From: Anaerolineales bacterium
GTDB lineage: Bacteria > Chloroflexota > Anaerolineae > Anaerolineales > UBA11858
Reading direction: 5' to 3'
DNA: 64,000 nucleotides
NCBI GenBank assembly: GCA_041686005.1
Contig: JAWLER010000001.1
Location: forward strand, 95,756-159,755
The translations under genes and the position numbers were made by a program. Shown here one piece after another: positions 33,213 through 52,240 of this stretch. The notes beneath the pieces were generated by a model. That model made no database searches. It worked only from the letters and a program-made list of their open reading frames with translations, and had not been told where the DNA came from. Position 1 is the stretch's first letter. Every line of letters starts with the position of its first letter.

Positions 33213-33298
33213 GTCCAGCTTGTGATCAAAGGTTGATAGACTAAGGTTTTGCCCCTGAAGATGCAGGTGTTGTGCTGCCGGGGGATGTGGTTGGAATT

Positions 33299-35161
33299 AT
33301 GATCATGATCCAAAGATTATCCTCCAGATTCTGGAAGGGTGGATTGCTGTTGGTAATGACCTTGGCATTTGGGGCCTGTCAGGCTCCAGCGGGGAATCCG
33401 GAGGTTGTTTCCACATCGACTACCCCACCTACAAAGACCATTCTCCCTTCCCAAGCCGCTTCCCTTGAAGCGGTGGAGACCACGGCACCTCAGCTATCGT
33501 CATCTTCAACCCCTCCGCCTGCTAGCGCCACGCCAACTTTGGAAGGCCGAGAGCCATCCCCCATCCCCATGATCGAAATCCAGGATGTCCAAGAAGCGGA
33601 GCTTCCTTACAATTACCTGTTCCAGGAGATGATAGATGCCTATCGGACCTGCCAGGAAGAAGCGAGCGAGGATTGGAGTGCCAGCCTCTTCCTCTATGAT
33701 CTGGATCAGCGACAACCTCTGGCGGGGATGGGTTTGGATAAACAAATGCCGGTCGCTTCCGCTTTCAAGGGTCCGGTGTTATTTTATGCTCTCAGCCATC
33801 TGGACCCTGATGTGACAGGAAGTGTGCCGATCCGGTATTGGTCCCAAACAGGGGAGATTCCCGAAGAATACCTGCCCCTTCTTCGCGAGCATTGGATCCT
33901 CTCCCGTCTTTATAACATGATCGTCCACAGCTCGAATAGAGCCACGGCCCAGGTCCTTAATTATGTGAACGCGCGTAGCCAGACGGATTTGAATCCCCTG
34001 GAGCAATTCAATGCTTGGTCTCGAGAGGTCGTTCAGACGAGTATGGAATCCGGGCTGTACCAATGGCAGCATCCTCCTTTGGAAGGGATCACCGATCCCT
34101 CCTCTCCCCCTCAGAACGTGTATGGGCGTTGTGGGAGCGCCTATTATTATTACAACACGTACTCAGTGCGCGATTTGGGTATGTACTATGCCTGGTTGGT
34201 GAATGAAGCCCCTGCCCATGTCCAGGAGCTTGCATTTTCTCTGTTGAGCATTGTGGAAGAAGAACCGGGGTTTTTGGAAACGACGGCGGTCCGGTTGAGG
34301 GGTAGATCGATCAGTAAAGGGGGTATTTTCGGGGGGGAAGCCATTACCCATGTATGGGTGGATGCGGGTCTGATCCTCCTCGAGGAGGGCCAGACCTATT
34401 TAGCCGCAACCGCGACGATCAATTCCGCTGATTTGTTATCGTCTTTTTACGAGGGCATCGAGCGCATCATCCGAATCGAGAATGATCTTCCCCGAACGCA
34501 TCTGATTAACCAAATCACCCTTCCTGATTGGGCGGCCAATCTTAAAGCGGTCGCTTCAAACTACCAGGCGGACAGCCATCAAGAAGCGGTTGAGGTGGCG
34601 AGGGACATTGATTACATCAAAGGGCACGACACGGAGGATTCATCCACCATGTGCGGTCCACTCACAGGAGCGATGCTCCGGGACGCAGGTTTGCTTGCGC
34701 CGGATGTGGACTTGGGCTTATTTTGGTATCCGGATCCCATCAGGAATGGGAGGCCGTGGACGTTATTCGATTTAGATGATTTTTATCTGTTCGGATTCCG
34801 ATCGCCGGAATACGCTCTCGATACATTCGATTTCACACGATTCCCGCTTCTGCCAGGGGATATCATCTACACCCATGGGGGGAGCGGGACCCATTTATTT
34901 GTGGTCACGGAGGTGGATGATCAGGGGCGGGCTTACACGGTGACCAACTATTGTGAGGGTGAGCATGACTGCCCGATACGGAGATTGCTTCTGTATGACC
35001 CGGCTGATCCGGGCCGGGGCGCTTTTTATAGCGAGTTTCAGGAAGGTTGGTTTCGCACTGGGATGATGGGATTTGACCTTTTACGTTCCAAAACATACCC
35101 TCAAATATTTTCTGATTGGTACCTGACATTCCTTCTCAATGATGAATATCAAGAAGAATGA
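33299..35161 (+). CDS. secreted (lipobox) protein: class-A beta-lactamase-like serine hydrolase domain plus a C-terminal candidate Cys/His (papain-like) domain
   Basis: Signal/lipobox LAFGAC, a P/S/T-rich linker, SxxK as VASAFKG, an SDN-like HSSNRAT, and KTG-like SKGG. The C-terminal part has MCGPLTGAML and THGGSGTHLFVV. The start may be GTG 33272 or ATG 33299. Confidence 0.65.
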   Translation: MIMIQRLSSRFWKGGLLLVMTLAFGACQAPAGNPEVVSTSTTPPTKTILPSQAASLEAVETTAPQLSSSSTPPPASATPTLEGREPSPIPMIEIQDVQEAELPYNYLFQEMIDAYRTCQEEASEDWSASLFLYDLDQRQPLAGMGLDKQMPVASAFKGPVLFYALSHLDPDVTGSVPIRYWSQTGEIPEEYLPLLREHWILSRLYNMIVHSSNRATAQVLNYVNARSQTDLNPLEQFNAWSREVVQTSMESGLYQWQHPPLEGITDPSSPPQNVYGRCGSAYYYYNTYSVRDLGMYYAWLVNEAPAHVQELAFSLLSIVEEEPGFLETTAVRLRGRSISKGGIFGGEAITHVWVDAGLILLEEGQTYLAATATINSADLLSSFYEGIERIIRIENDLPRTHLINQITLPDWAANLKAVASNYQADSHQEAVEVARDIDYIKGHDTEDSSTMCGPLTGAMLRDAGLLAPDVDLGLFWYPDPIRNGRPWTLFDLDDFYLFGFRSPEYALDTFDFTRFPLLPGDIIYTHGGSGTHLFVVTEVDDQGRAYTVTNYCEGEHDCPIRRLLLYDPADPGRGAFYSEFQEGWFRTGMMGFDLLRSKTYPQIFSDWYLTFLLNDEYQEE

Positions 35162-36163: not shown

Positions 36164-37225
36164 CTATTCTTGGAAGAGCTGTAAGGCTTGATAGGGATCA
36201 AAATGGAGGATGACCTCTTCACCGACAGCGGGTAAATCCGTGGTGGCGGCGGGGAAATGGAACTGCAGTGTGGTCCCCGCCACATCCACCTCGGTTCGAA
36301 AGGTCTTTCCGCTGAAGGATTTCTTTGCCAGCGCTCCCCTCAGCTCGCAGTGCTTCGCGGAGGAGGGGGGTCCGACTTCCACGACATCAGGACGGAGCAG
36401 TACGGTGCATTTCCCTTGCGCGTCCTCCTCGCTGGGCCAGGTACCCAACGGAGTGGAGATCATGGTCCTCTTCCCCTCTCGCTTTGCTTCCCCCTCCAGG
36501 AGATTGGTCAATCCTAAAAATTGGGCTACAAAGGTGGAATTGGGATGGCGGTAGATCTCCATCGGGGTCCCTATTTGAGCTACCTTTCCCTCTTTGATGA
36601 CCACGATCCGGTCGGCAACCGAGAAAACCTCCACCTGGTCATGGGTGACATATAGGGCGGTTTGATTCATCGATTTTAATATCTCCCGCAGTTCGCCCAT
36701 CAACCGTTCCCGCAGGGTGCGGTCCAAGGAGCCAATGGGTTCATCCAGCATCAACAAACGGGGTTGGGGGGCCAGGGAACGAGCGAGCGCCACCCGCTGC
36801 TGTTCGCCGCCGGACAACGTATCCACATCGCGCTGCCCGAAATCAGGCAACCCCACCAGCTCCAGGACGTCTTCCACGCGTTGGGCGCTCTTTTCTGGGG
36901 GCCAATCTTGCATCAACAAGCCGAAGGCGACGTTCTCCTCCACGTTTTTATGCGGGAAAAGTGCGAAATCTTGGAACATGAGACCAAATCCGCGCCGATA
37001 AGGCGGGATGGCGGTTAAATCCTCCCCGTCCCAGGTGCAAGTCCCTTGGTCGGGCTGGATCAAGCCGGCGATGATCTCCAGCAAAGTGGTTTTGCCGCTT
37101 CCGCTGGGGCCTAAGATCCCCACGATTTCCCCTTTGTGAACCTTGAAGGACACCCCGGTCACGGCCCGGGTATTTCCAAAAGACTTATGGATATTGTGGA
37201 GTTCTAAGCCTTCTTCTGAACTCAT
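36164..37225 (-). CDS. ABC transporter ATP-binding protein (PotA/FbpC/ThiQ-type importer ATPase with C-terminal TOBE-like region)
   Basis: GPSGSGKTT, LSGGEQQRVALAR and LLMLDEP motifs. I prefer ATG 37225 (MSSEEGLELHNIHKSFG) over the track start 37312. Confidence 0.85.
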   Translation of the reverse strand: MSSEEGLELHNIHKSFGNTRAVTGVSFKVHKGEIVGILGPSGSGKTTLLEIIAGLIQPDQGTCTWDGEDLTAIPPYRRGFGLMFQDFALFPHKNVEENVAFGLLMQDWPPEKSAQRVEDVLELVGLPDFGQRDVDTLSGGEQQRVALARSLAPQPRLLMLDEPIGSLDRTLRERLMGELREILKSMNQTALYVTHDQVEVFSVADRIVVIKEGKVAQIGTPMEIYRHPNSTFVAQFLGLTNLLEGEAKREGKRTMISTPLGTWPSEEDAQGKCTVLLRPDVVEVGPPSSAKHCELRGALAKKSFSGKTFRTEVDVAGTTLQFHFPAATTDLPAVGEEVILHFDPYQALQLFQE

Positions 37226-37391
37226 AGATATCACCAGATCCCCGATGCTGCTTCTTAAAGGTGGGTCAAGTTTTGACACCGGTGGATGGATGTCCATCCG
37301 GGGAACTTTCATCTATAATACCATTCATCCAGGCTGTTATTATTTTATCGCTGATTCTTGCCAGGCTGACCATCGAGACAGGACGGGGTTT

Positions 37392-37823
37392 ATGAAAATC
37401 TATTTCGCGTGTTCGATCACCGGCGGTAGGGAGGATGAAGGAGTGTACCAAAGGCTGGTTAAAGCCTTGACGGAGGCGGGCCACGACGTTCCCACCGCCC
37501 ACATCGCTGAGTCCGGTGTGGAGGAGAGGGACCAGTGGGAGGACCCTCTGGATATTTACCGACGGGATGTGACCTGGATTGAGGAAAGCGACCTTCTGGT
37601 GGCGGAGGTCAGCACCCCTTCCCATGGGGTGGGATATGAAATCGGATACGCCTTATCTTTACGGAAACCTGTGCTGTGCCTTTACCATGCTGACAAAGAT
37701 ATTTCAAAAATGATCTCGGGCAATCCCCACCCGCTGTTGAGCGTCCATGAATACCAAACCCATCAAGAAGCTTTGGAGGTCCTATCGCGCTTTCTCTCTG
37801 AAATTTCTACGGGAGATGGGTAG
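37392..37823 (+). CDS. DNPH1/Rcl-like 2'-deoxynucleoside 5'-phosphate N-hydrolase (nucleoside 2-deoxyribosyltransferase superfamily)
   Basis: Begins MKIYFACSITGGRED and contains PSHGVGYEIGYA, matching the DNPH1 pattern (MKIYFAGSIRGGR .. S.GVG.E.G). The track ORF starts at 37143, but that extension is antisense to the ABC ATPase gene. Confidence 0.7.
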   Translation: MKIYFACSITGGREDEGVYQRLVKALTEAGHDVPTAHIAESGVEERDQWEDPLDIYRRDVTWIEESDLLVAEVSTPSHGVGYEIGYALSLRKPVLCLYHADKDISKMISGNPHPLLSVHEYQTHQEALEVLSRFLSEISTGDG

Positions 37824-38057: not shown

Positions 38058-41000
38058 ATGTCTGACCATACACATTTTTCAGGGTGGAAGTACCTCGCAA
38101 TCGGGCTGGTCTTGATTGCGGCGATGGGCTGCAGACTCACCCAGGTGATCGATATCGATTTTTCGGACGATCAAACCATTCCCCTGGTCACAGATACCTC
38201 GGGGGAAGAAGAGGTCAGAGCTCAAAACGGAGACGGGGAGGATGAAATGCCCGGGTTAATTATCAACCTTAGCGATGGAAGTGCGCAGCCCGCACCCTCG
38301 GAAGGGCCCTCAGAAGTGATAGGTGAACCACTTTCCGAGGATCAAATTCAAGCGATCTTATCCCGATTGCCTGATTTGCCGGATGTGGAAGGGTTGCAGG
38401 TGGATTTCAAGCTCCCAGATGAGGTCTTGCCGCCTCCCCGGACAGGCCAGACCATCGACGTGGTCTTCCCCTCTCCGGATGAGATCGGAGGACCGGAGCC
38501 TGTAGAAGGTCAGCCTTTGAAGGTGTTGCGGTACTCTCCGGAAGGAGAGGTGCCCATTGCGCCTTTCATCAGCGTCACCTTTAACCAGCCCATGGTGCCC
38601 TTGGATACCCTGGAAGGTTTGGCGGATGAGGAGGTACCTGTTGAGGTCAGCCCGGATGTCTCGGGCACATGGCGCTGGCTGGGTACAAAAACCTTGAATT
38701 TCCAATCTGACTCGGAGGAGTATGACCGCCTGCCCATGGCCACTAAGTACCAGGTCACCATCCCGGAAGGGGTGGCGTCGATGTCTGGACAGGTATTGGA
38801 GGAAACGGTTCAGTTCGCATTCCAAACCCCACCTCCCACCCTGCAAACCTACTATCCTTCCAATGGACCCCACGCGCTGGAACCCCTGATGTTCGCTTCT
38901 TTTGACCAGCGTATTAATCCGGAAGCCGTCCTGGAAACGATCCATGTCTCCGCCGGGGGAGAGGAAGTGCCCGTCCGATTGGCAACGGAGGAAGAGGTCA
39001 AAGAGGATGAAAGGGTGAAGCGGATGGCAGAAGATGCCATGGAAGGGCGCTGGCTGGCTTTCCGGGCGGAAGAACCTTTCCCTGCCAATACGACCATCAC
39101 CGTGGATATCGGTCCCGGTACGCCTTCCGCGGAAGGTCCTCTGACGACGGAAAGCGGACAGGGATTCAGTTTTTATACCTACCCACCCCTCCAGATTGAA
39201 GATCACGGTTGCTTTTGGGGTGGTGAGGAATGTCGGCCGCTCACGCCGCTTTACATTCGATTCAACAACCCCTTGGATATAGACGCCTACGAGGAAGGCA
39301 TGCTCCGTATTCAACCGGAACTGCCCAATGCCTCGGTGGATGTGTACGGGAATACGATTAAAATCAGCGGAACGACGAAAGCCCGGACGACATATCGGGT
39401 GACCGTGGATGGGGAGATTAAAGATATCTACGGACAGACGTTGGGGAAAGATGAAACCCTGAGATTCCGGATTGGATCCGCTGAACCGCTCTTATTCGGG
39501 CCAGAGCAGACGCTGGTCACCCTTGATCCGGCTTCAAAGAAACCTGTTTTATCGCTGTATGCGATCAATTATGACCGCCTGGACGTGAAAATTTATGACG
39601 TGGAACCATCCCATTGGCCCGATTTTAGAAAGTACTTGCAGGATTACCAGCGACGGGAGGATCCCATGGATCCCCCCGGTGAATTGGTGTTTGATTCCTC
39701 CGTGCCTGTAGAAGGGGACGCGGATACCCTCACAGAGGTCCCCATTGATCTCAGCGAGGTGATGTCCGGGGAGTTCGGCCATTTTATAGTCATCGCCGAA
39801 CCGCCCAAGGAGCTGTTTAAAAAGGAACGGTACTGGGAAGTGGTCCAGGTCTGGGTCCAGGTCACGCAGATCGGGCTGGACGCCTTCGTGGATCACAGCG
39901 AGATGGTAGCTTGGACGACAGCGCTGAAAGACGGCACCTCCCTCCCGGATGTGAGCATCAGGGACGGGTCGCAGGATGTGCTTGATGTGACCGATCAGAA
40001 GGGTGTGGCGAACTTTGGGATCCCCGCTGGGGGCATCTCTTACCTGATAGCGTCGAAAGGCGGGGACAGCGCTTTGCTGCCCTCCTCATATTCCTATTGG
40101 GGGGAGGGTGGTTGGCAAAAGCGGTCTGTTTTGGATGAATTGCGCTGGTATGTCTTTGACGACCGCCAGATGTACAAGCCGGGGGAAGAGGTATTTGTCA
40201 AAGGCTGGATGCGGCGCATCGGCAGGACGGAGACCGGGGATGTGGAACTGGTCGGCCAAGGGATCACCGGCGTGCGCTATCAAGTCACCGGGCCCCAGGG
40301 GAATGAGATCATCCAAGGGCAAGCGGAAGTGAACGCTTGGGGCGGGTTTGACCTTTCCTTCAGACTGCCGGAAAACATCAACCTAGGAGCCGCTCAACTG
40401 GTATTGAGCCCTCTCGGCAGCGCTGGAGGGATGCAGGCGGGTCAGCATGTACATATGTTCCAGATTCAGGAGTTCCGCCGCCCCGAATTTGAGGTCAAAG
40501 CCCGCAACGAGACCACGGGGCCTTATTTCATCGGGGATCAGGCGGTGGTGGCTGTGGAAGCCAAATATTATGCCGGAGGCCCCTTGCCCAATGCGGATGT
40601 GGAATGGCGCGTGAACACCCAACCCACGAACTACCAGCCCCCGAACTGGCCGGATTTCACTTTTGGGATGTGGACACCGTGGTGGATGTTCTGGCAAGGC
40701 CCGGGGTATGAAGATGGGGGAGGGCACTATACCTTCTCCGGCAGGACGGATGCATCCGGGAATCATTTTTTGAAGGTGGATTTTGAAAGCGTGGAGACGC
40801 CTCGCCCCTACAGCCTGTTGGCGGAAGCCACCGTGATCGATGTCAACCGCCAGGCTTGGGCCAGCACCACCGATCTCATGGTCCATCCTGCGGACCTCTA
40901 CGTCGGCATGCGCACAGAGCGCTACTTCGTCCAGCAGGGGGACCCCATGGAGGTGGACCTCATCGTCACCGATCTGGATGGAGAGCCGGTCACGGATCGG

Positions 41001-44000
41001 CCCATCCAGGTAGAGGCCGCCCGACTGGAGTGGAAAGTTCAAGATGGCCGGTGGCAGGAAGAGGAAGTTGACGTTCAGGAGTGCAGCGAAGGTTCAGAGA
41101 ACGAACCCGTCACCTGCACCTTCGAGACGCCGGCAGGCGGTCGTTACCAGATCACGGCCAAAGTAACCGACAGCCAGGGTCGCGAGAACCAGAGCCGCAT
41201 TATACGCTGGGTGAGTGGGGGGCAGCGTCCTCCCTCCCGTAAGGTGGAGAAGGAAGAAGTCACCCTGGTGCCGGACAAAGAGACCTATCAACCCGGCGAT
41301 GTGGCGGAGATCTTGGTCCAAGCCCCGTTTGAGTCTGGGGAAGGTCTGCTGACCCTGGGCCGGGATGGGATCGTCGATACGAAACCTTTTTCATTCACAG
41401 AGGGGAGCACCACGCTTAACGTCCCCATCAAAGAGGCATATCTTCCCAACCTGCACTTGCAGGTGGATGTCGTGGGTTCAGCCCCTCGAACCGATGACCA
41501 AGGAGAGGCGCTGGGTGATGTCCCCCCGCGACCTGCCTACGCTTCAGGGCACATAAATCTGGAGATCCCGCCGTTAGACCGTACGTTATCTGTGAAAGCG
41601 GCGCTGGAAGATCAGGCTTTAGAGCCCGGTGGCGCGACGAATCTGAACCTGGAGGTAAAAGATGCCCGCGGAGAGCCGGTCCAAAATGCGGAATTGGCCG
41701 TGGTGGTGGTGGATGAAGCCATCCTGGCCTTGACGAATTACCGGCTGACCGATCCCCTGTCTGTTTTCTATCAGACCCGTCCGGCAGGTTTCAGCTCCTA
41801 TTACAGCCGGGCCAGTATCGTCCTCGTCGACCCCCGCTCCTTGCTGGAAGATGTCCAACAGGACGAGGCGTGGAATGCCGCACAACCGACCATGGTGGCT
41901 GAAGGGGCTCTGGAGATGGAAGTGGCAGAGGAGGAGGCCCCACTGGCGAAATCAGCGGATACAGCAGGCAGAGGTGCAGCGGAGGCACCGGGAGAGGAGC
42001 CCATCCAGGTCAGGACAGATTTCAACCCCCTGGCCACCTTTGCACCGGAAGTCCGGACCGATGCCCGGGGGGAAGCCAGCGTCCGCATCCAGGTGCCGGA
42101 CAATTTGACCCGCTACCGGGTCATGGTGGTGGCGGTGGATCAGGGTGGGAAGCAATTTGGTTCCGCGGAGACCAATCTGACCGCGCGTTTGCCGTTGATG
42201 GTCCGCCCCTCTGCCCCCCGTTTCTTGAATTTTGGGGATGTCTTTGAACTTCCTGTTGTCCTCCAAAACCAGACCGGTGAACCGTTTGAGGCGGATGTGG
42301 TCCTCCGGGCCAATAATCTCAACCTGGATGAGGAACAAGGGATGCGGGTCACGGTCCCGGCGAAGGACCGGATCGAAGTCCGCTTCCCGGCTTCCACCGA
42401 GATGGCGGGGACAGTCCATTTCCAGGTGGCAGCTGTAGCGGGGGATTATGAAGACGCTGCCTTTGGGGAGCTGCCCGTCTATACGCCGGCCACGACAGAG
42501 GCCTTCGCCACGTACGGGACGATCAATGAGGGAACGGTCATGCAGCCGGTAGCAGCCCCCGAGGATGTCTTCCCCCAGTTTGGCGGCCTGGAAGTCAATA
42601 CCTCTTCTACGGCGCTCCAAGCGCTGACCGATGCCGTTTTGTACCTGGTTTCCTATCCCTATGACTGCTCGGAGCAAATCGCCTCCCGGGTGCTGGGCAT
42701 CGCAGCTTTGCGGGATGTCCTCACCGCTTTCGAGGCGGAAGGATTGCCATCCCCACAGGCGTTGGAAAACGCGGTGGCGCGAGATGTGGAGGAACTGGAA
42801 CGCTTGCAGAATAACGATGGTGGGTTCCCGTATTGGCGCAAAGGGCTGGATTCCATCCCCTTCCATACCATTCATGTCGCTCATGCTCTGCAGCGGGCGG
42901 AGATGAAGGGGTTTGAGGTCCCGGATGAGATGCAGAATCGGCTCTTAACGTATCTGCGCGAGATCGAGCGCCACTATCCGTCCTGGTACGGGGAGGACAC
43001 GAGGAACACCCTCAGCGCCTATGCCCTCTATGTGCGGGATTTGATGGGGGACAGCGACCCGGTCAAAGCCAGGAATTTGTTGAATGACGCCGGGATTGAG
43101 GAGCTCCGCCTGGATGCTGTAGGTTGGATCTGGCAGGTTTTGATCGATTCCCCCGGCTCAGCCCTGGAATTGGAGACTATCCGCCGCCATGTGGGCAACC
43201 GGGTGGTGGAGACGGCCGGAGCGGCCAATTTCACAACCCGCTTTGACGATCAGAATTACCTCCTCCTGGGTTCGAACCGCCGCACGGACGCCATCCTTCT
43301 GGATGCCCTGATCGCCGATGATCCGGGCAGCGATCTCATTCCTAAAGTGGTCAATGGATTGTTAGCTCACCGAGAGAAGGGGCGCTGGCGGAACACACAG
43401 GAGAACGTATTCGTCCTCCTCGCTCTTGACCGCTATTTCAACACCTTTGAAAAGCAAACCCCTGAATTTGTGGCCCGCATCTGGCTGGGCGAGACCTATG
43501 CTGGTGCGCACACCTACGTGGGACGAACCACGGAGCGGAAAGAGACCCAGATCCCGATGTCCTTCTTGGTCGGAGAAGGGGAGGGGGAAACCCAGGACCT
43601 GATCATCGAGAAGGAAGGGCCAGGCCGGCTTTACTACCGCTTGGGTTTGATATACGCGCCCACCGATCTGGACCTGGATCCCCTGGAGATGGGGTTCGTC
43701 GTCCAGCGAGAGTATGAAGCGGTCGACGACCCCGAGGATGTCTGGCGAGACGAAGATGGGACCTGGCACATCAAAGCCGGGGCCCGGGTCCGGGTCAGGC
43801 TGACCATGGTGGCGGATAACCGCCGTTATCATGTCGCCCTGGTCGATCCCCTCCCGGCAGGCTTGGAGATCGTCAACCCCGCCTTGGCGGTGTCCGGCAG
43901 CATACCTGAGGATCCGAACAGTGAGGAGTACCGCTTTGGCTGGTGGTGGTGGTGGACCTGGTACAACCATCAGAACATGCGCGATGAGCGGGCGGAAGCC

Positions 44001-44156
44001 TTCACGCCATTGCTGTGGGATGGCGTTTATGAATATACCTATGTCGCCCGCGCCACCACACCTGGCACCTTCGTAGTGCCTCCCGCGAAAGCGGAGGAGA
44101 TGTATTCCCCCGAGGTCTTCGGACGCAGCAGCAGCGACCGGGTCATCGTGGAGTGA
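38058..44156 (+). CDS. bacterial alpha-2-macroglobulin family protein (2032 aa) with thioester motif and possible lipoprotein signal
   Basis: The size and repeated beta-rich MG-like segments fit the family. The thioester-type motif YPYDCSEQ lies at nt 42666-42677 (CSEQ). Also present are FPYW, a terpenoid-cyclase-like TED context, and a C-terminal GWWWWWTWYNHQNMRDERAEAF. The N-terminus is hydrophobic and ends in AAMGC. Confidence 0.85.
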   Translation: MSDHTHFSGWKYLAIGLVLIAAMGCRLTQVIDIDFSDDQTIPLVTDTSGEEEVRAQNGDGEDEMPGLIINLSDGSAQPAPSEGPSEVIGEPLSEDQIQAILSRLPDLPDVEGLQVDFKLPDEVLPPPRTGQTIDVVFPSPDEIGGPEPVEGQPLKVLRYSPEGEVPIAPFISVTFNQPMVPLDTLEGLADEEVPVEVSPDVSGTWRWLGTKTLNFQSDSEEYDRLPMATKYQVTIPEGVASMSGQVLEETVQFAFQTPPPTLQTYYPSNGPHALEPLMFASFDQRINPEAVLETIHVSAGGEEVPVRLATEEEVKEDERVKRMAEDAMEGRWLAFRAEEPFPANTTITVDIGPGTPSAEGPLTTESGQGFSFYTYPPLQIEDHGCFWGGEECRPLTPLYIRFNNPLDIDAYEEGMLRIQPELPNASVDVYGNTIKISGTTKARTTYRVTVDGEIKDIYGQTLGKDETLRFRIGSAEPLLFGPEQTLVTLDPASKKPVLSLYAINYDRLDVKIYDVEPSHWPDFRKYLQDYQRREDPMDPPGELVFDSSVPVEGDADTLTEVPIDLSEVMSGEFGHFIVIAEPPKELFKKERYWEVVQVWVQVTQIGLDAFVDHSEMVAWTTALKDGTSLPDVSIRDGSQDVLDVTDQKGVANFGIPAGGISYLIASKGGDSALLPSSYSYWGEGGWQKRSVLDELRWYVFDDRQMYKPGEEVFVKGWMRRIGRTETGDVELVGQGITGVRYQVTGPQGNEIIQGQAEVNAWGGFDLSFRLPENINLGAAQLVLSPLGSAGGMQAGQHVHMFQIQEFRRPEFEVKARNETTGPYFIGDQAVVAVEAKYYAGGPLPNADVEWRVNTQPTNYQPPNWPDFTFGMWTPWWMFWQGPGYEDGGGHYTFSGRTDASGNHFLKVDFESVETPRPYSLLAEATVIDVNRQAWASTTDLMVHPADLYVGMRTERYFVQQGDPMEVDLIVTDLDGEPVTDRPIQVEAARLEWKVQDGRWQEEEVDVQECSEGSENEPVTCTFETPAGGRYQITAKVTDSQGRENQSRIIRWVSGGQRPPSRKVEKEEVTLVPDKETYQPGDVAEILVQAPFESGEGLLTLGRDGIVDTKPFSFTEGSTTLNVPIKEAYLPNLHLQVDVVGSAPRTDDQGEALGDVPPRPAYASGHINLEIPPLDRTLSVKAALEDQALEPGGATNLNLEVKDARGEPVQNAELAVVVVDEAILALTNYRLTDPLSVFYQTRPAGFSSYYSRASIVLVDPRSLLEDVQQDEAWNAAQPTMVAEGALEMEVAEEEAPLAKSADTAGRGAAEAPGEEPIQVRTDFNPLATFAPEVRTDARGEASVRIQVPDNLTRYRVMVVAVDQGGKQFGSAETNLTARLPLMVRPSAPRFLNFGDVFELPVVLQNQTGEPFEADVVLRANNLNLDEEQGMRVTVPAKDRIEVRFPASTEMAGTVHFQVAAVAGDYEDAAFGELPVYTPATTEAFATYGTINEGTVMQPVAAPEDVFPQFGGLEVNTSSTALQALTDAVLYLVSYPYDCSEQIASRVLGIAALRDVLTAFEAEGLPSPQALENAVARDVEELERLQNNDGGFPYWRKGLDSIPFHTIHVAHALQRAEMKGFEVPDEMQNRLLTYLREIERHYPSWYGEDTRNTLSAYALYVRDLMGDSDPVKARNLLNDAGIEELRLDAVGWIWQVLIDSPGSALELETIRRHVGNRVVETAGAANFTTRFDDQNYLLLGSNRRTDAILLDALIADDPGSDLIPKVVNGLLAHREKGRWRNTQENVFVLLALDRYFNTFEKQTPEFVARIWLGETYAGAHTYVGRTTERKETQIPMSFLVGEGEGETQDLIIEKEGPGRLYYRLGLIYAPTDLDLDPLEMGFVVQREYEAVDDPEDVWRDEDGTWHIKAGARVRVRLTMVADNRRYHVALVDPLPAGLEIVNPALAVSGSIPEDPNSEEYRFGWWWWWTWYNHQNMRDERAEAFTPLLWDGVYEYTYVARATTPGTFVVPPAKAEEMYSPEVFGRSSSDRVIVE

Positions 44157-44187
44157 ACCTGCTTTCCTGAAATCAACTTTAGAAGAA

Positions 44188-44224
44188 AAAGACCCCAGGC
44201 GGTAATCGAACGTCTGGGGTCTTT
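44188..44224 (+). terminator. rho-independent terminator after the A2M gene
   Basis: AAAGACCCCAG..loop..CTGGGGTCTTT is flanked by an A-run upstream and followed by a short T-tract. Confidence 0.7.
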
Positions 44225-44581
44225 ACTATCTTGGGAAATGGGAAACGCTCCTGATTCCCCTGAGATGATCCGCTGGGTGCTGGCGCCTTATGGAATCAGC
44301 GATGTGGGTTGGTGGGGAAAGTATCTTGCGCATAGCCGAGTGATGTTCTGATCCTATCTTTACGGATAGGATCAGAGAGGGTGGACTTTTTGAGGGAAGG
44401 GAACCTGTTTACGGATGATTTGGGCTGGGCCGATGATCGATTGCTGGCCGGTTGTGTTAGGGGTATAATTCGATGAAATTATAACTGCTTGCATCGGTTT
44501 TCATTTGGAGTGATATATTTTAAATGGGGTGCGTTTGGTAGCGTTCGTTGATTATGCATGTCAATCAAAGGAGGAAGGGAG

Positions 44582-46213
44582 ATGGGAACGAAACGGGGAA
44601 GACAGCTTTTTGTGGTGATCGTTACCTTGATCGCGTCAATGCTGGCCTGCAATTTTGGGAGTGAACCGACGGTCGAGGTGGCGATTGAGAGCCCGGAGGA
44701 CGGCGCGACGGTAAATGTTGGCGAAGCGGTGGAGATCCTTTCCCATGCCAAAGCCAGCGCTGGGGTGGCGCGGGTCGAGTTGTGGGTCAACGGGGAAGTG
44801 GAGCGCATGGATGAACCGCCCACGGAGAACCCCACGGAATTCCGGGTCGCGCAGCCCTGGACGCCTGATGCCCCGGGGGAGGTGACCCTCTCCACGGTAG
44901 CCTACGATGGGGAGGGAAATATCTCATCCCCAGCCATCATCACCGTGCAGGTCGTTGGGGAGAGTGCCGTGGAGGTAACGCCGACGCCTTTTACGCCCGA
45001 GCCCACGGCGGAGGAAGAACCAACATCAGAGCCCACCGAGGAGGTTGAACCGACATCGGAGCCCACAGTGGAGGATGAATGCACCCTTGACGCCTCCTTT
45101 GTATCGGATGTCAGCATCCCGGATGGCACGGAGGTCGACCCCGGGGCATCTTTTGTCAAGATCTGGCGCGTAAAAAATAATGGGACCTGTGATTGGGAAG
45201 GGGGATTCCAGCTCTTGTACACCAGCGGAGATCAACTCGGCGGGCCCGCTTCTATCAATCTGCCCGTTGTCGCACCGGGGCAGGAAGTGGATCTCTCGGT
45301 TGATTTGACCGCACCGGTTGCACCAGGGACCTATCAAGGGGAGTGGCGGCTGCGGTCTGCGGATGGGGAGATCTTTGGGACCAACTTGATCGTGGAGATC
45401 GTCGTCCCGGCGCCTCCGACCGACACGCCCACACCCACAGCGACCTTGCATATCGTATTGACGGTAAAGCCTATCACATTGATACCGTTCTTTCCTTACA
45501 CGGAGTTGGTGGCCGAGCAGATCTCAATCAACTCGGGTGCCATTGGGTCCACCACTGCCACTTGCCCCAGCGGGAGCCTTTTGGTCAGCGGCGGGTTCGC
45601 GACACACCCTGATGTGCTGGTTTACACCCACTCGAGGAACGGCAACGGCTGGCGGGCCTATGCCAAGAACAACTCGGGTTCCAGCAAATTGCTCAATGTA
45701 TATGCTACTTGCTTGCATAATGCGTCCGGCGCTTCCATCACCCAAGTGGTCCAAAGTGTCATGGCGGCGGGTGGTGGTACCGGCCATCCCGTGGCTGCCT
45801 GCCCGTCCGGAAGCATCGTCACCGGCGGTGGGTGGGCCAGCAAATCAGACGGCAGTCTGTGGGTCTATAAAAGCTCTAAGTCGGGCAACGGCTGGCAGGT
45901 GTATGCCAAGAACTCCAGTGGATCGGGCAACCAGGTGAACGCCTACGCCATCTGCCTGTCGGGTGTCAGCGGCTTGACTGAGCAAATCATGCAGTCAACG
46001 AGCATCGCGGCCGGATCAACCGGGAGCGCTACTGCCACTTGTGGGAGCAATAAACTCGTCACCGGGGGCGGGTTTGCATCCCAGGATGATCTGGTGATGT
46101 ACAACACCTCCCCATATTTGACCGGAACGAATCAGTGGCGGACCTATGCCAAGAACACCGGAGGTTCCACCCGGACGATGTACGGGTACGCAGTCTGCCT
46201 CTCGTTCCCGTAA
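44582..46213 (+). CDS. secreted lipoprotein: Ig-like domain, P/T/E linker, NBR1/FW-like domain, three C-terminal Cys-bracketed repeats
   Basis: Signal with LIASMLAC. The FW-like block is FVSDVSIPDGTEVDPGASFVKIWRVKNNGTCDW..GTYQGEWRLRSADGEIFG. There are three repeats of the form C[PG]S..[VL][ST]GGG[FW]A..W..YAKN..G..Y[AG].CL. I prefer ATG 44582 over the track start 44558. Confidence 0.8.
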   Translation: MGTKRGRQLFVVIVTLIASMLACNFGSEPTVEVAIESPEDGATVNVGEAVEILSHAKASAGVARVELWVNGEVERMDEPPTENPTEFRVAQPWTPDAPGEVTLSTVAYDGEGNISSPAIITVQVVGESAVEVTPTPFTPEPTAEEEPTSEPTEEVEPTSEPTVEDECTLDASFVSDVSIPDGTEVDPGASFVKIWRVKNNGTCDWEGGFQLLYTSGDQLGGPASINLPVVAPGQEVDLSVDLTAPVAPGTYQGEWRLRSADGEIFGTNLIVEIVVPAPPTDTPTPTATLHIVLTVKPITLIPFFPYTELVAEQISINSGAIGSTTATCPSGSLLVSGGFATHPDVLVYTHSRNGNGWRAYAKNNSGSSKLLNVYATCLHNASGASITQVVQSVMAAGGGTGHPVAACPSGSIVTGGGWASKSDGSLWVYKSSKSGNGWQVYAKNSSGSGNQVNAYAICLSGVSGLTEQIMQSTSIAAGSTGSATATCGSNKLVTGGGFASQDDLVMYNTSPYLTGTNQWRTYAKNTGGSTRTMYGYAVCLSFP

Positions 46214-46255
46214 TGAACATGGGTTGTTAGATCCCAAGCGTTTGAACCGTTCAGC

Positions 46256-46293
46256 AAAAGCTGGCTCCACATTAGAGCCAGCTTTTTCCTTTG
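46256..46293 (+). terminator. rho-independent terminator
   Basis: AAAAGCTGGCTC-cacatta-GAGCCAGCTTTT (12-bp stem) followed by TCCTTTGG. Confidence 0.8.
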
Positions 46294-46450
46294 GCACCGT
46301 AAATACCCTTATGGTGAACTTTTTCACAAATCGTTCACTTCATCTTCACATCTTCTTCACAACTGTTATGTATCATCAACCCGGTATGAAATATGTGAGC
46401 TACGGGAAATGGATTTAAGACCTAAACGATGGGCGAAGAAGGAGAATGGT

Positions 46451-47110
46451 ATGGGGAAAAAAAGACGGATTGTATCTGAACAAACGAGGAATAACCTCAT
46501 CTTGGACAGCTTAATGGGGTTGGGGGGCATACTTTCTGCTTTATCCGGGGTTTATTTCCTGTTTTTACCGGTCGGCGGTTATCAAGGGGGTCGGAATCCC
46601 CTCCATGGGGTGACGGTGCTCTTTGAGCGTCACACCTGGAGCGAAATCCATACTTGGGCCAGTGTGGCCTTGATTGGGATAGCGGCGCTGCACATCCCCC
46701 TCCACTGGAGCTGGATCCTGAACATGAGCAAACGCGGTGCGCGGTTATTGTTTGGGGACTGCCAGTTGAATAAATACAGTCAATTTAACCTTGGTGTAAA
46801 CATTTTAATTGGTTTGAGCGGGTTGGTCACGGCGTTCAGCGGTTTGTATTTCCTGCTTGTACCCGGCGCGTCGCATGAATCTCTATTGACTGATCCGGGA
46901 TGGCTGTTCACCCGTTTGACCTGGGATTTGATCCATACCTGGAGTGGTGTGGTTTTTATATCGGCCATGGTGCTCCATATCTGGATCCACTGGAAATGGT
47001 TTTATAAAGTGGCCTTGCGGTATGGGGTGGTTTGGCGGAAGAGAATGTCCGGTCCGGTGCTGGAGGGGGGATCCACCGAGGTGGCTTCGGTCCCTGTGGA
47101 GGATCGATAA
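46451..47110 (+). CDS. DUF4405-like membrane protein (two repeats of a His-containing TM pair)
   Basis: The motif HTW[AS].V..I..A.LHI..HW.W occurs twice. AAGGAG lies 8 nt upstream of ATG 46451; the track start is 46409. Confidence 0.65.
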   Translation: MGKKRRIVSEQTRNNLILDSLMGLGGILSALSGVYFLFLPVGGYQGGRNPLHGVTVLFERHTWSEIHTWASVALIGIAALHIPLHWSWILNMSKRGARLLFGDCQLNKYSQFNLGVNILIGLSGLVTAFSGLYFLLVPGASHESLLTDPGWLFTRLTWDLIHTWSGVVFISAMVLHIWIHWKWFYKVALRYGVVWRKRMSGPVLEGGSTEVASVPVEDR

Positions 47111-47157
47111 TCAGGAAATCAATGTAGATGTACACGAGGATGTTGTGAGGTTAAATA

Positions 47158-47751
47158 ATGGTTAAGAAAATCGTTTTGTGGTCGATCTATGCTTTATTTG
47201 TCGGACTGCTTGTCTGGGGGGCGGTCAACCGCACGGTGGCGAAATCCGGCGCTGACAGCGGCGTCAGGCAGGAGGGGCTGGTGGGAGTTCAAGAAGGAGG
47301 CCGAGGGCTAAGCGGATATGGGGGAGGGGAGGGAAGCATTGAAGGCGCTGATTCTGGAGATTGTGAGAGTAGGGTAGAAGGCGGTGAGGGGAACCGGGGA
47401 CAGGGCAGCTTCGGGGGCGGGAAGCCGTCAGCCGGACATAGTGAGATTGGCCCGGAATCCGTTCCGGAGAATCATGAATGGCTGACGGTGGACGGGATTA
47501 TCGCTGCCGTGGATGGGGAGGGCATGCTTGTGGAAACCGAAGGCTATGGGGGTATTGAGGTTACCCGACGGGCCTGGAGGTTTGCACAAGAGTTGGGATA
47601 CGCCCCTCAAGTGGGGCATGAAGTGAAACTGGAAGGGTTTTTCGAAGGGGGTACGTTTGAAACGGCCGTTGTCCAGGATCTGACCTCCGGTCACACGATC
47701 CGGCTCCGGGATGAGACCGGGCGCCCCTTGTGGGCCGGTGGCGGGCGGTGA
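47158..47751 (+). CDS. hypothetical membrane-anchored protein with a Gly-rich linker and a C-terminal beta-rich domain
   Basis: N-terminal TM IVLWSIYALFVGLLVWGAV followed by a G/E/S-rich low-complexity segment. No family recognised. Confidence 0.5.
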   Translation: MVKKIVLWSIYALFVGLLVWGAVNRTVAKSGADSGVRQEGLVGVQEGGRGLSGYGGGEGSIEGADSGDCESRVEGGEGNRGQGSFGGGKPSAGHSEIGPESVPENHEWLTVDGIIAAVDGEGMLVETEGYGGIEVTRRAWRFAQELGYAPQVGHEVKLEGFFEGGTFETAVVQDLTSGHTIRLRDETGRPLWAGGGR

Positions 47752-47764
47752 ACGGTTGGAAATC

Positions 47765-48313
47765 CTAATGTATCTGGTAGATAGATTCAGGCGGCACAGC
47801 TTTAACCAACCAGATTTCCTCTGTGGCTTTGTAAAAAATATGTCCTTCTTGGTGCATCTCAGCCGCATCCACGCGGAGGATGACCGGCTCCCCATGCCTT
47901 TTTCCCACCTGGCGGGCAACCTCAGGGGTGGAAGAGAGGTGGACGAATTTTCTCCCCTGAGGTTTTAATCCCTCCTGTTTAATCCCCTCGACAGCATGTA
48001 TGGCTGTGCCGTGGAAAAGGATCTGGGGAGGATCCTGCGGTTGATAGTCCAGGTCAACGTCCAGCGAATGCCCGTAGCGGGCCCGGGTCCGCGATCCGTC
48101 CGGGCTGATCTCGAAACGGTTCTTTGAACTGGTCTCCACGATCTCTTCCAGGGCATCACGATCGAGATCGACCCCGTGCTGGTTTGCCCGGGTGATGAGC
48201 TCATCTACTTCTGCCCAGCCTCCTGGATCCAGCTCCAAGCCGATCTTCCCCGGTTGGTGGCGCAGGATATGGCTCAGGAACTTGCTGTAATGCGTGCGTT
48301 TTATCTTCCTCAT
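47765..48313 (-). CDS. kptA: RNA 2'-phosphotransferase Tpt1/KptA family
   Basis: SKFLSHILRHQPGKIGLELDPGGWAEVDELI .. RFEI .. IRARYGHS .. LFHGT .. HLS motifs. Confidence 0.85.
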   Translation of the reverse strand: MRKIKRTHYSKFLSHILRHQPGKIGLELDPGGWAEVDELITRANQHGVDLDRDALEEIVETSSKNRFEISPDGSRTRARYGHSLDVDLDYQPQDPPQILFHGTAIHAVEGIKQEGLKPQGRKFVHLSSTPEVARQVGKRHGEPVILRVDAAEMHQEGHIFYKATEEIWLVKAVPPESIYQIH

Positions 48314-48360
48314 GGGAATCCCACTTCATTTAGCGATGGCTTCGAAAGAGCAAGCCGTCA

Positions 48361-48396
48361 AAAAACAAAAAACCCGGGAGCGAGGGCTCTACCGGG
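48361..48396 (-). terminator. rho-independent terminator downstream of tRNA-Asp
   Basis: On the minus strand: ACCCGG..loop..CCGGGT followed by TTTTTGTTTT. Confidence 0.7.
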
Positions 48397-48407
48397 TTTC
48401 TCTCGGA

Positions 48408-48480
48408 GCGGGGACGACCGGATTCGAACCGGCGATCTCGGCCTTGACAGGGCCGCATGTTAACCGCTACACCACGCCCC
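48408..48480 (-). tRNA. tRNA-Asp (anticodon GUC), 3' CCA not encoded
   Basis: Hand-folded cloverleaf from the minus strand. Acceptor GGGGGCG/CGTCCCC with one G-U pair, D-arm GTGT/ACAT, anticodon stem CGGCC/GGCCG with loop CUGUCAA, 5-nt variable loop, T-arm GCCGG-TTCGAAT-CCGGT, discriminator G followed by CTCC. Confidence 0.9.
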
Positions 48481-48557
48481 CGAGCGAAAGCTATTCTATC
48501 ACATCCCCCCTTGGCGTCAAGTATTTTGTTGGTTCCCGTAGGTTTGTTGACAAGCGT

Positions 48558-50270
48558 TCAGAACTCGCCGATATCTGCGATCCGGAAACGCTCGATGGCC
48601 AGCATGCCGCCCAGGGTGACCACCATCAAGATGGTGCTCAAGGCCATGGCCTGCCCGTAGTGCAACGGGCCCGGTCGAGAAAGCAAGCGGTAAATTACCA
48701 CGGGGACGGTGGGGTATTCAGGGCGGACGATCAAAGACGTAGCCCCGAATTCGCCAATCGAGATGGTGAAGGCGAAGGTGGCCGCCACCAGCAAAGCCCG
48801 GCCGATCATGGGCAGATCGATGTGCTGGAAAACCTGGCGGGGCGAGGCCCCCAAAACGGCCGCCGCCTGGTGCAGGTTGGGCTGAATACTTTGCAACACC
48901 GGGGTCAGGCTGCGGACCACAAAGGGAAAGGCCACCAGGGTGTGAGCCAGGGGGATGAGGATGGGTGAGGCCCGCAGATCGAGTGGTGGGTGATCCAAGG
49001 CGACGATGAATCCCAATCCCAAAGTGACCGCTGAGGTCCCCAAAGGGAGCATGAGCAGGGGATCGAGGACCTTATTCAGGGGGGAATCCCTGTCTCTGGC
49101 CAAAGCCCAAGAAGCGGGGAGGCCCAGGACCAGGGCGAGGACGACCGTGACAGCCGCATATCCAAAAGAGATGCCAATCGCCGTGGTGGGCGGGACGTAA
49201 AAGAGGGATTCCTGTGGATTTTGAGCTAAAGCTTTGAAAAACGCAAAGGTCAACCCCCGGGGTCCATCTCGGGTGGGAGAGAGGTGGGTGATGGAGCGGG
49301 TCCCAAGCGCTATCAGGGGTGTGGTGAGGACGAGCAACAGGACCGCGATGAACGCCCCTGCAATGAGTTTCCTCCGCCAAGTGACCAGGGGGCGCTGGAT
49401 TTGTCGTTCGGAGCGCTGCTGGACGGGGCGGGAGATCCGGTCCATCAGCCGTGTGTAAACCACGGTGAGGACCAGCGTCATCCCCAGTTGCAGGAGGGAG
49501 AGAGTGGCTGCCATGGGGAGGTTGAACAAACTGATGGTTTGATAGTAGATTTCCACTTCCAAGGTTGAAAATTGGGGTCCCCCCAGAACCAGGATCACTC
49601 CAAAAGACGTGAAATCGAAGATGAAGACCAGCAGCGAGGCTGCCGCTACCGCCGGGGCCAGCAAGGGGATGGTCACCTGGCGCAGCGTCTGCCAGCGGTT
49701 TCCTCCCAAGACTTGGGCGGCTTGTGCGAAACGGGGGTCCAGACGGCTCCAGAAATCCCCCACCACGCGGAGGACAATGGTCGTGTTGTAAAAGACGTGG
49801 GCGACCAAAATAGCCGGGAAAGTATTCAGGAAGTTGATGGGCGGGGAGGGAAGGGAAAAAAGGTCCATCAGCAGGGTATTTACCCAACCATTGGGCCCCA
49901 GCAGGGCGTTGAATCCGGCTGCCACCACCAGGGTGGGGAGCACGAAGGGCACACCGGTCAGGGCGCGGAGGAAGTCCTTCCCTCTAAACTGGAAACGGGC
50001 AAAGAGGTAAGCCCCTGGCAGGCCGAGAAGGAGGGTGAGGATGGTGGAAAGGGTCGCCTGCCAGAGCGTGAATCCCAGGACATCCCTGACGGTCGGCGTG
50101 ATCAGCGCGTTCCAGAGGGAAACCAGAGCGTTTCCCTCCCCCCGGCTGAAGCTGAGTTGGATGATGTTGCCCAGCGGGTAAAAGTAGAATACCCCCAGAA
50201 ATCCCAAGGGCAATAACCATAATATATAGGGGAGGGTGCGCTGGATCTTTGATCTCGAAGAAAGGTTCAT
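48558..50270 (-). CDS. thiP: thiamine ABC transporter permease (two fused permease domains)
   Basis: About 570-aa duplicated permease under TPP-riboswitch control. I prefer the start MNLSSRSKIQ (50270) over the track start 50312. Confidence 0.8.
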   Translation of the reverse strand: MNLSSRSKIQRTLPYILWLLPLGFLGVFYFYPLGNIIQLSFSRGEGNALVSLWNALITPTVRDVLGFTLWQATLSTILTLLLGLPGAYLFARFQFRGKDFLRALTGVPFVLPTLVVAAGFNALLGPNGWVNTLLMDLFSLPSPPINFLNTFPAILVAHVFYNTTIVLRVVGDFWSRLDPRFAQAAQVLGGNRWQTLRQVTIPLLAPAVAAASLLVFIFDFTSFGVILVLGGPQFSTLEVEIYYQTISLFNLPMAATLSLLQLGMTLVLTVVYTRLMDRISRPVQQRSERQIQRPLVTWRRKLIAGAFIAVLLLVLTTPLIALGTRSITHLSPTRDGPRGLTFAFFKALAQNPQESLFYVPPTTAIGISFGYAAVTVVLALVLGLPASWALARDRDSPLNKVLDPLLMLPLGTSAVTLGLGFIVALDHPPLDLRASPILIPLAHTLVAFPFVVRSLTPVLQSIQPNLHQAAAVLGASPRQVFQHIDLPMIGRALLVAATFAFTISIGEFGATSLIVRPEYPTVPVVIYRLLSRPGPLHYGQAMALSTILMVVTLGGMLAIERFRIADIGEF

Positions 50271-50337
50271 GGTCTCAGGGTCACTTTGCTGAAGACACCC
50301 TGCAGGTCCCAAATCTGCAGGGTGTCTGAAAATCTCA

Positions 50338-51426: not shown

Positions 51427-51439
51427 AATCTTTCTCCAC

Positions 51440-52078: not shown

Positions 52079-52104
52079 TGTGGGCTCCTTTTATGTGCTG
52101 GTAA

Positions 52105-52240
52105 AGTAAAAAACTCCTCTTTGCGGAGGAGCTTTGTCTTTGATATCAGCATGCCTCCGCCGGTATTATCCGGATCAGGTTCGCGGGTCGAAAGTTGAAC
52201 TTTCCTCTCAGCCGAATGGTCGGCTCCCCGTGCTTCCTAT
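52105..52240 (-). promoter_or_regulatory. TPP (THI-box) riboswitch with terminator-type expression platform
   Basis: The minus strand reads ..CACGGGGAGC..GCUGAGAGG..ACCCGCGAACCUGAUCCGGAUAAUACCGGCGGAGG.. and then CUCCUC-cgcaaa-GAGGAG-UUUUUU. GCGGAGG of the aptamer 3' side can alternatively pair with CCUCCGC of the terminator. Confidence 0.9.

Follow-up and report, generated by a model that had tools for sequence, protein, structure and literature searches.

In a window of 64,000 nucleotides (nt) from an Anaerolineales bacterium, the window being the whole stretch of DNA that was analyzed, a gene for an alpha-2-macroglobulin (A2M) of 2032 amino acids (aa) was found at positions 38058 to 44156 of the forward strand. 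The results of open reading frame (ORF), Pfam and BLAST analyses make it probable, with good confidence, that this gene encodes a membrane-anchored, Type I-like A2M carrying a thioester motif, that it is monocistronic, and that it is one of a large set of orthologues distributed across the class Anaerolineae (Chloroflexota). A thioester-type A2M of this length, about 380 aa longer than YfhM (ECAM) of E. coli, had been described in the first-pass annotation of the sequence. The ORF bears this out, as YfhM consists of 1653 aa and is exceeded by 379 aa. A Shine-Dalgarno sequence (GAGGAGGG) is located ahead of the ORF at 38045-52. The protein is already automatically annotated as an A2M family member in NCBI, where it is 100% identical to the entry 'MAG: alpha-2-macroglobulin family protein [Anaerolineales bacterium]' (MAG, metagenome-assembled genome).

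Using BLASTP, residues 448 to 2031 were aligned to residues 137 to 1650 of YfhM with 21% identity (E 1e-38), whereas the match to the YfaS pseudogene region was weaker (E 2e-18). Since the similarity to YfhM exceeds that to YfaS and the thioester motif is present, the protein was classified as Type I-like. The alignment offsets, with residue 448 corresponding to residue 137 of YfhM, distribute the extra length over approximately 310 aa before this point, approximately 50 aa in the bait region and approximately 25 aa further downstream.

The Pfam analysis revealed two Big_5 stretches, bMG3, MG2, A2M_BRD, A2M and bMG10, all above the curated cut-offs or strong, together with a weak match of bMG5. 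For the N-terminal part, an AlphaFold (AF2) model of residues 131 to 720 was used, which consists of consecutive beta-sandwich domains with a predicted local distance difference test score (pLDDT) of 82. The top match of this model in the Protein Data Bank (PDB), as determined by Foldseek, was the MG0-NIE-MG1 structure of ECAM (4zjg; E 1e-14, 311 aligned columns, TM-score of 0.56 normalised to the target). The N-terminal domain layout was derived from this match in combination with the sequence offset to YfhM. It places an MG0-NIE-MG1-like region at residues ~376-690 (39183 to 40127, +; Pfam bMG3 at 602-677). This region is followed on the same strand by MG2 (residues 697-783), by further MG domains that were not resolved one by one (residues 784-1068), by the bait-region domain (BRD; residues 1069-1225, 41262 to 41732; PF07703, E 5e-20) and by the A2M domain (residues 1328-1415). 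The thioester domain (TED; residues ~1500-1800, 42555 to 43457, +) was located by phmmer between the A2M domain and MG10, with residues 1322-1790 aligning to residues 960-1429 of the A2M of Salmonella (PDB 4u48). The C-terminal bMG10 domain (residues 1879-2019, 43692 to 44114, +; PF17973, E 4e-38) was matched over its full length. The domain parsing by hidden Markov models proposed in the first-pass annotation was thereby achieved for the MG array, the BRD and MG10, and the TED was assigned by phmmer to 4u48 and not by Pfam.

The thioester motif CSEQ, containing Cys1537 and Gln1540, is located at 42666 to 42677 (+). In the phmmer alignment, the residues YPYDCSEQ (1533-1540) match the ypyGCLEQ of 4u48 column for column, and the counterpart in YfhM is YPYGCLEQ, beginning at residue 1183. 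The CxEQ motif noted previously at this location is thus present and occupies a position homologous to the CLEQ of 4u48. It is retained in 79 of 84 A2M orthologues (94%).

The column entropy was determined in an alignment of 119 homologues. The most variable parts of the family are the anchor with the early tether and residues 1261-1320, with 2.0 to 2.7 bits. The latter segment (41838 to 42017, +) is rich in Ala and Glu and was assigned as the bait region proper. With 2.0 to 2.4 bits and 11-14% gaps, it surpasses all other internal segments of the A2M in variability and indel content; most of these range between 0.4 and 1.3 bits. The highest conservation was found in the part of the TED that surrounds the thioester (0.4 bits) and in MG10 (0.2-0.6 bits). 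A variable bait in combination with a conserved TED and MG10 is the pattern that would be expected of a bait-and-thioester trap.

The N-terminal membrane anchor was assigned from the sequence to 38058 to 38132 (+). The N-terminus (MSDHTHFSGWKYLAIGLVLIAAMGC) contains a hydrophobic run up to Cys25 and ends in the lipobox-like AAMG-C25. A possible but imperfect lipobox had been proposed for this segment. It is possible in that the core PROSITE lipobox pattern fits at Cys25, and it is imperfect in that K and R are absent from the first 7 residues. In the family, lipobox-like ends (...[AGS]C) were identified in 68 of 119 homologues and a hydrophobic helix without Cys, seemingly uncleaved, in 46, so that an N-terminal anchor is present in 114 of 119; the starts of the other 5 are evidently mis-called. 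The lipoproteins were classed loosely, as a strict PROSITE-style regular expression under-counts them and many orthologues carry Asn at position -4. The constant feature appears to be the tethering to the cytoplasmic membrane, while the chemistry of the anchor varies.

The anchor is followed by an acidic, Pro-rich tether of approximately 125 aa (residues 26-150, 38133 to 38507, +), which was defined by the entropy profile and the consensus. Residues 1-60 are highly variable and residues 61-150 carry conserved short motifs; the pLDDT of residues 131-150 is low in the AF2 model. The family-conserved motifs at 38238-38507 (residues 61-150) are LSDGxAQP, GEPLSxxEIxxILxRLPxL and DFRLPDExLPPPRTGETI, and they could be a candidate docking site. 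Two extra Big_5 (SbsA-type) immunoglobulin (Ig)-like domains without an ECAM counterpart were placed at residues ~151-375 (38508 to 39182, +) on the basis of Pfam, the AF2 model and the YfhM offset. For the N-terminal extension (residues 151-480), matches to 758 clusters at 50% identity were obtained (E<=1e-30); in full-length members of ~1950-2110 aa they are found at positions ~130-500.

A total of 3059 A2M homologues was found at E<=1e-10. Nearly all of the best 120 are approximately 2030 aa in length, with identities of 62-92%, while a few shorter ones are probably truncated; the named entries among these 120 originate from Anaerolineales/Chloroflexi MAGs. The length of the protein, which the first-pass annotation had singled out as giant, is therefore the norm of its family, as also indicated by the presence of the extension in 758 clusters. 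In the GTDB contigs, with one genome per species, relatives of the A2M are encoded in at least 542 species genomes. The best 80 of these 542 all belong to the Chloroflexota, nearly all of them labelled Anaerolineae/Anaerolineales and one labelled Ardenticatenaceae. They include the cultured Leptolinea tardivitalis YMTK-2 and the complete genome of Leptolinea sp. HRD-7 (loci L073 and L072 of the set of orthologous loci, respectively), furthermore Levilinea, Bellilinea, Ornatilinea, Ca. Desulfolinea and many MAGs. The gene is an unremarkable representative of a large Type I-like branch of the bacterial A2Ms that extends throughout the Anaerolineae and is uncharacterised. Its GC content of 0.55-0.60 is slightly higher than that of the flanks (~0.53-0.55). 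Horizontal acquisition was considered for this reason and dropped, in view of the synteny of the gene and its conservation throughout the class. In the searchable open-access literature, no mention of macroglobulins together with Anaerolineae was found. Judging by titles and abstracts, none of the co-mentions of Chloroflexi and macroglobulin is relevant, and the A2M passages of PMC9793634 concern Patescibacteria.

Known bacterial A2Ms had been assigned in the first-pass annotation to two genetic contexts, next to pbpC or within the mag operon, neither of which was seen around this gene. This was confirmed: no pbpC or mag-operon genes were found across the 64 kb of the window, nor, in 83 related loci, at a distance of up to 10 kb from the orthologue. 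A tblastn search with PbpC, YfaP, YfaQ, YfaT and YfaA of E. coli gave 0 matches (E<=1e-3) in the window and 85 related loci. In a scan for GT51 motifs, both motifs were detected in PbpC as a control. The sole GT51-like match in the sequences scanned, at 12791 of the window, is located inside a GntR/UTRA regulator and was discarded as spurious. The Type I A2M gene has been described as 'often located juxtaposed' to pbpC (PMC3328433) and as lying beside pbpC 'in a number of bacteria' (PMC5764988). As the linkage is thus called frequent and not universal, the missing pbpC neighbour is unsurprising.

For the analysis of the gene neighbourhood, the flanking ORFs of 84 A2M loci were clustered into families. 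The commonest family was a generic ABC ATPase, which was found in 27 of the 84 loci. The next families (DUF2085, HSP90, a nucleoside deoxyribosyltransferase (NDT)-like gene, SurE and MFS) were found in 12 to 16 loci each, a recurrence that reflects plain synteny among the closest relatives. In 44 of 74 loci, the gene that directly follows the A2M gene has the reverse orientation, and each downstream family is seen 3 times at most. The terminator at 44188 reported in the first-pass annotation was recovered by folding and alignment as a terminator-like hairpin at 44188 to 44224 (+; -27.1 kcal/mol, z -5.7), albeit with a weak T-tail in the window (TTTACTATCTT). Loci L003 and L006 share the hairpin, in which a C:G pair has changed to T:A in a compensatory manner. 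Owing to the weak T-tail, it was not called in a scan for consensus promoters and terminators, which yielded fewer sites than in shuffled sequence. Since there is no conserved neighbour family, the downstream gene is mostly on the opposite strand and the hairpin is conserved, the A2M gene is regarded as a stand-alone monocistronic unit.

The next gene downstream encodes a lipoprotein with an NBR1/FW domain, and in the first-pass annotation the two genes had been combined into a pair. This was examined by tblastn of the lipoprotein against 83 A2M loci; in 62 of them, the available sequence extends 2.2 kb or more downstream. The lipoprotein was found directly downstream of the A2M gene only in the window, in L003 (A2M 92% identical) and in L006 (81%). 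It is absent from L001/L007 (86% A2M identity), L002/L043 (69%) and all other loci of the 83. L001/L007 are colinear with the window over HSP90, MFS, SurE, a 620-aa ORF, DUF2085, the ABC ATPase, the NDT-like gene and A2M, and continue with kptA, the thiamine ABC genes and the thiamine pyrophosphokinase gene, with kptA directly after A2M. In L002/L043 a different small ORF occupies the position of the lipoprotein. A weak tblastn match of the NBR1 domain upstream of the A2M gene in L052 (E 8e-6, 82 aa) was disregarded, since no ORF of at least 100 aa is present there.

Outside of this narrow clade, six contexts of lipoprotein homologues (42-53% identity) were inspected, and in none of them was an A2M gene found within 8-10 kb. 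Two of these homologues are flanked by a DUF488 gene on one side and a SIS-domain gene on the other, one of the two homologues in a complete 2.7-Mb genome. Two others are part of tandem arrays of NBR1-domain lipoproteins, one adjoins a STAND NTPase and a polysaccharide deacetylase, and one adjoins methyltransferase and glycosyltransferase genes. In the window, the spacer of 401 nt between the two genes contains, besides the hairpin, a GGGGTATAAT box (TATAAT, -10 type) that is conserved in L003, and these elements argue for separate transcription units. PADLOC gave no match for the four genes from A2M to the gene of the 197-aa ORF (orf197), so they correspond to no catalogued anti-phage defence protein. 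NCBIfam gave no match for the A2M, lipoprotein, NDT-like and DUF4405 genes or for orf197.

The interval between the A2M gene and the kptA/thiamine operon is a variable slot, as shown by the differing contents of L001/L007 and L002/L043 and by the DUF4405 and 197-aa genes of the window, for which no counterpart was found in any of the 85 loci. In the window, the slot (44157-48481) contains the NBR1 lipoprotein, DUF4405, the 197-aa ORF and kptA (-). Elsewhere it holds kptA only (L007), the lipoprotein only (L006) or a small ORF and kptA (L043). A tRNA-Asp gene (48408-48481, -) is located at its edge. The lipoprotein is an unrelated, probably separately transcribed chance neighbour of the A2M gene within this slot.

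For the A2M itself, the following mode of action is proposed by analogy. The protein would be exported and held at the outer face of the cytoplasmic membrane via a lipidated Cys25 or, in many orthologues, via an uncleaved transmembrane helix. Acting as a stalk, the tether of ~125 residues together with the two additional Big_5 Ig domains would project the trap into the wall or sheath zone. An attacking protease would cut the exposed hypervariable bait (~1261-1320). The resulting conformational change would expose the Cys1537-Gln1540 thioester in the TED, which may then react with a lysine of the protease and fix it covalently. No dedicated partner would be needed. Chloroflexota are devoid of the genes for the outer-membrane assembly machinery (BAM) and lipopolysaccharide (LPS) and are generally regarded as monoderm, yet multilayered envelopes were seen by cryo-electron tomography (bioRxiv 10.1101/2025.08.19.671072). 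Based on this combination of monoderm-type gene content and multilayered envelopes, the A2M would most likely act outside the cytoplasmic membrane, in the space enclosed by the wall, an outer layer or the sheath. That it is an active, long-tethered A2M without PBP1c or Mag proteins nearby, acting as a membrane-tethered protease trap by means of a stalk that is adapted to the envelope of monoderm-like filaments and reaches into their wall or sheath zone, is put forward as a tentative proposal, at somewhat less than even odds.

Several points weigh against the main interpretation of the gene as encoding a membrane-anchored, Type I-like A2M trap. With characterised A2Ms, the protein shares no more than about 21% identity. 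The Pfam TED model gave no match to the protein at E<0.01, so the phmmer alignment with 4u48 is the basis of the TED homology. Owing to the missing K/R, the lipobox is imperfect. Thioester formation, protease trapping, lipidation and localisation are all predicted by homology to ECAM and the A2M of Salmonella. The nature of the envelope compartment in Anaerolineae is debated (bioRxiv 10.1101/2025.08.19.671072). The absence of pbpC applies to the 64-kb window and the related loci. Finally, the thioester Cys is replaced by Ser or Gly in 5 of 84 orthologues, with the remaining protein conserved. These five are the orthologues without any CxEQ and carry SSEQ (L002, L043 and L068) or GSEQ (L020 and L082); of these, L002 and L043 show synteny with the window. 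Thioester-less forms thus appear to arise repeatedly inside one Type I-like family. Since 79 orthologues keep CxEQ and 5 do not, the covalent step seems to be strongly but not absolutely conserved, and the loss of the Cys in the latter suggests that it is dispensable in some lineages.

The same five variants are an argument for a non-covalent, Type II-like trap, in which CSEQ is kept while the thioester is not formed or not needed and proteases are inhibited sterically as in MagD. MagD, which traps proteases without a thioester (PMC5764988), is a precedent for this. Such a trap is improbable here in view of the retention of CxEQ in 94% of the orthologues, the low entropy (~0.4) of the nearby TED segment, the lack of Mag partner genes in the window and the 85 loci, and the closer similarity to YfhM than to YfaS. 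Slightly better placed, though still unlikely, is a function of the A2M/C3 fold other than mainly protease trapping, namely as a covalent tagging or adhesion factor or as a structural component of the envelope. The thioester would then attach the tethered molecule to foreign surfaces or to the wall or sheath polymers of the cell itself, as C3 and the thioester-containing proteins (TEPs) of insects do when they opsonise their targets. A long tether and two S-layer-type Big_5 domains, which are absent from ECAM, would suit such a role, and the organism's group is filamentous and sheathed, without a classical periplasm (bioRxiv 10.1101/2025.08.19.671072). In addition, giant membrane-localised A2Ms of Patescibacteria have been discussed with regard to host interaction (PMC9793634). 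Nevertheless, the hypervariable, indel-rich segment lies exactly where protease baits are found, the closest solved relatives are protease traps, and no sequence feature distinguishes an opsonin role.

The surface-defence module of the first-pass annotation, in which the A2M as trap and the NBR1/FW lipoprotein as adaptor or recogniser would form a two-component system, is very improbable. Both proteins are predicted to be membrane-anchored and exported, their genes lie on the same strand and are adjacent in three genomes, and in NBR1 and ILRUN the FW domain serves to bind proteins. However, these three genomes form one narrow clade, and the adjacency is missing in a colinear relative with 86% A2M identity and in the rest of the 83 loci. 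That the downstream lipoprotein is not conserved beside A2M orthologues had been named beforehand as the finding that would speak against the pairing, and the module was rejected for this reason. Moreover, all 6 outside-clade contexts of the lipoprotein are without A2M, hairpin and -10 box in the 401-nt spacer are conserved, lipoproteins with an NBR1 domain form a family of multiple copies that elsewhere occurs in tandem arrays, and PADLOC matches are lacking. A membrane-anchored, Type I-like A2M encoded on its own remains the preferred reading.

The lipoprotein gene (44582 to 46213, +) was characterized by Pfam, AF2 and Foldseek. The listed ORF spans 44558-46213. The translation most likely starts at ATG 44582, which is preceded by GGAGG at a distance of 8 nt, is kept in L003 and leads to the lipobox SMLAC. 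The presence of an Ig-like domain, an NBR1/FW domain and three repeats, as stated previously, was corroborated by Big_7 (E 4e-8), N_BRCA1_IG (PF16158, E 7e-29) and Cys-paired repeats. The AlphaFold model (pLDDT 88) comprises the signal peptide with the lipobox (residues 1-23), the Big_7 Ig domain (31-125), a disordered linker (129-160), the FW domain (170-275), a second linker (287-300) and a compact three-module C-terminal domain (306-541, 45497-46204 of the window). The sequence matches in the PDB were ILRUN (6vhi, E 4e-18) and NBR1, with which the FW domain is shared; in Foldseek it matches 6vhi with a TM-score of 0.93 normalised to the target and 35% identity. The residues W195, W205 and W255 are invariant in 65 lipoprotein homologues.

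The three C-terminal repeats, with two invariant Cys per module, had been called novel. In the pre-computed Pfam labels they are faintly assigned to PF27479. They superpose on the complete C-terminal (resistin-like) domain of PCSK9 (7anq_A; E 6e-8, TM-score of 0.67 normalised to the target, 14% identity), which is the best non-trivial Foldseek match, and their fold is therefore a known one. The three-module fold is shared with PCSK9, whereas the lipoprotein differs in being bacterial, in having a Big_7 domain in front, in the low identity and in its two Cys per module as compared to the Cys/His-rich PCSK9 domain. The family with Big_7, FW and PCSK9-like domains (~530 aa) comprises 381 homologues, and the named ones all belong to the Anaerolineae/Chloroflexota. 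The lipoprotein is probably an envelope binding protein. Tandem arrays of two or three NBR1/FW lipoprotein paralogues were observed in other Anaerolineae, in L088 (8001-11423) and L089 (4457-9656), with one paralogue fused to Tricorn/PD40 beta-propeller repeats; these arrays point to the expansion of a family of envelope binding proteins.

Upstream of the A2M gene, the DNPH1-like gene noted in the first-pass annotation was verified as a member of the DNPH1/nucleoside deoxyribosyltransferase family (Nuc_deoxyrib_tr, PF05014, E 8e-17); it is the NDT-like gene mentioned above. The listed 226-aa ORF with the start codon TTG (37143-37823, +) overlaps the convergent ABC ATPase gene. As the genes called in relatives encode 140-145 aa, the real start is probably located later than TTG 37143, near 37400, resulting in a protein of approximately 140 aa.

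Further observations were made in the window. A thiamine pyrophosphate (TPP) riboswitch (52135-52240, -) precedes the genes for thiamine pyrophosphokinase, a solute-binding protein and a fused permease, with no ATPase gene after them (48558-52240, -). The only ABC ATPase gene in the vicinity (36164-37312, -) has the same orientation and is found at a distance of about 11 kb, past kptA, the variable slot, the A2M gene and the NDT-like gene. This separated arrangement is conserved in syntenic relatives, and the thiamine genes and the distant ATPase may be a split transporter operon. A 629-aa ORF (33272-35161, +) is conserved in 5 syntenic loci without a Pfam match at E<=0.001; one orthologue carries a faint Beta-lactamase2 label.

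A single locus is of little weight, and the picture at the level of the family is of modest value. If the A2M is an active trap, the prevailing model of a 'periplasmic breach defence coupled to peptidoglycan repair' would not be general. The hundreds of Anaerolineae species with a conserved, partner-less A2M of ~2030 aa and a stalk-like N-terminal extension offer a natural test of whether bacterial A2Ms depend in their function on a periplasm or on PBP1c. The natural Cys-to-Ser/Gly variants within one orthologous, syntenic family suggest that the distinction between Type I and Type II can flip within a lineage. Experiments are feasible, since orthologues are present in the cultured L. tardivitalis YMTK-2 and in the complete genome of Leptolinea sp. 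HRD-7.

Compared to the Type I A2Ms ECAM/YfhM and Sa-A2M of Salmonella (PDB 4ziq, 5a42, 4rtd and 4u48), the A2M described here has the same domain order from MG0-NIE-MG1 to MG10, YPYxCxEQ at the homologous position and an N-terminal anchor for the cytoplasmic membrane. It differs in its low identity (~21%), in its additional 379 aa, in having no adjacent pbpC, in the transmembrane helix that replaces the lipobox in many orthologues, and in a host phylum that, according to the literature, is without BAM/LPS outer-membrane markers. With the Type II proteins MagD of P. aeruginosa and YfaS of E. coli, which belong to the six-gene mag operon, it shares the large A2M fold and the bait region, and a minority of its orthologues is likewise without the thioester Cys. 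In contrast to these proteins, it keeps CSEQ, and no homologues of magA/B/C/E/F (yfaP/Q/T/A) were found in the window and the 85 loci. The giant A2Ms of Patescibacteria such as Ca. Vampirococcus lugosii, which are likened here by their description, are also large A2Ms without a classical diderm envelope, and protection against foreign proteases has been proposed for them (PMC9793634). Their hosts are epibiotic parasites, whereas the Anaerolineae, a group of a different phylum, are free-living filamentous fermenters. Given these large A2Ms in Patescibacteria, an A2M outside the classical diderms is not unprecedented.

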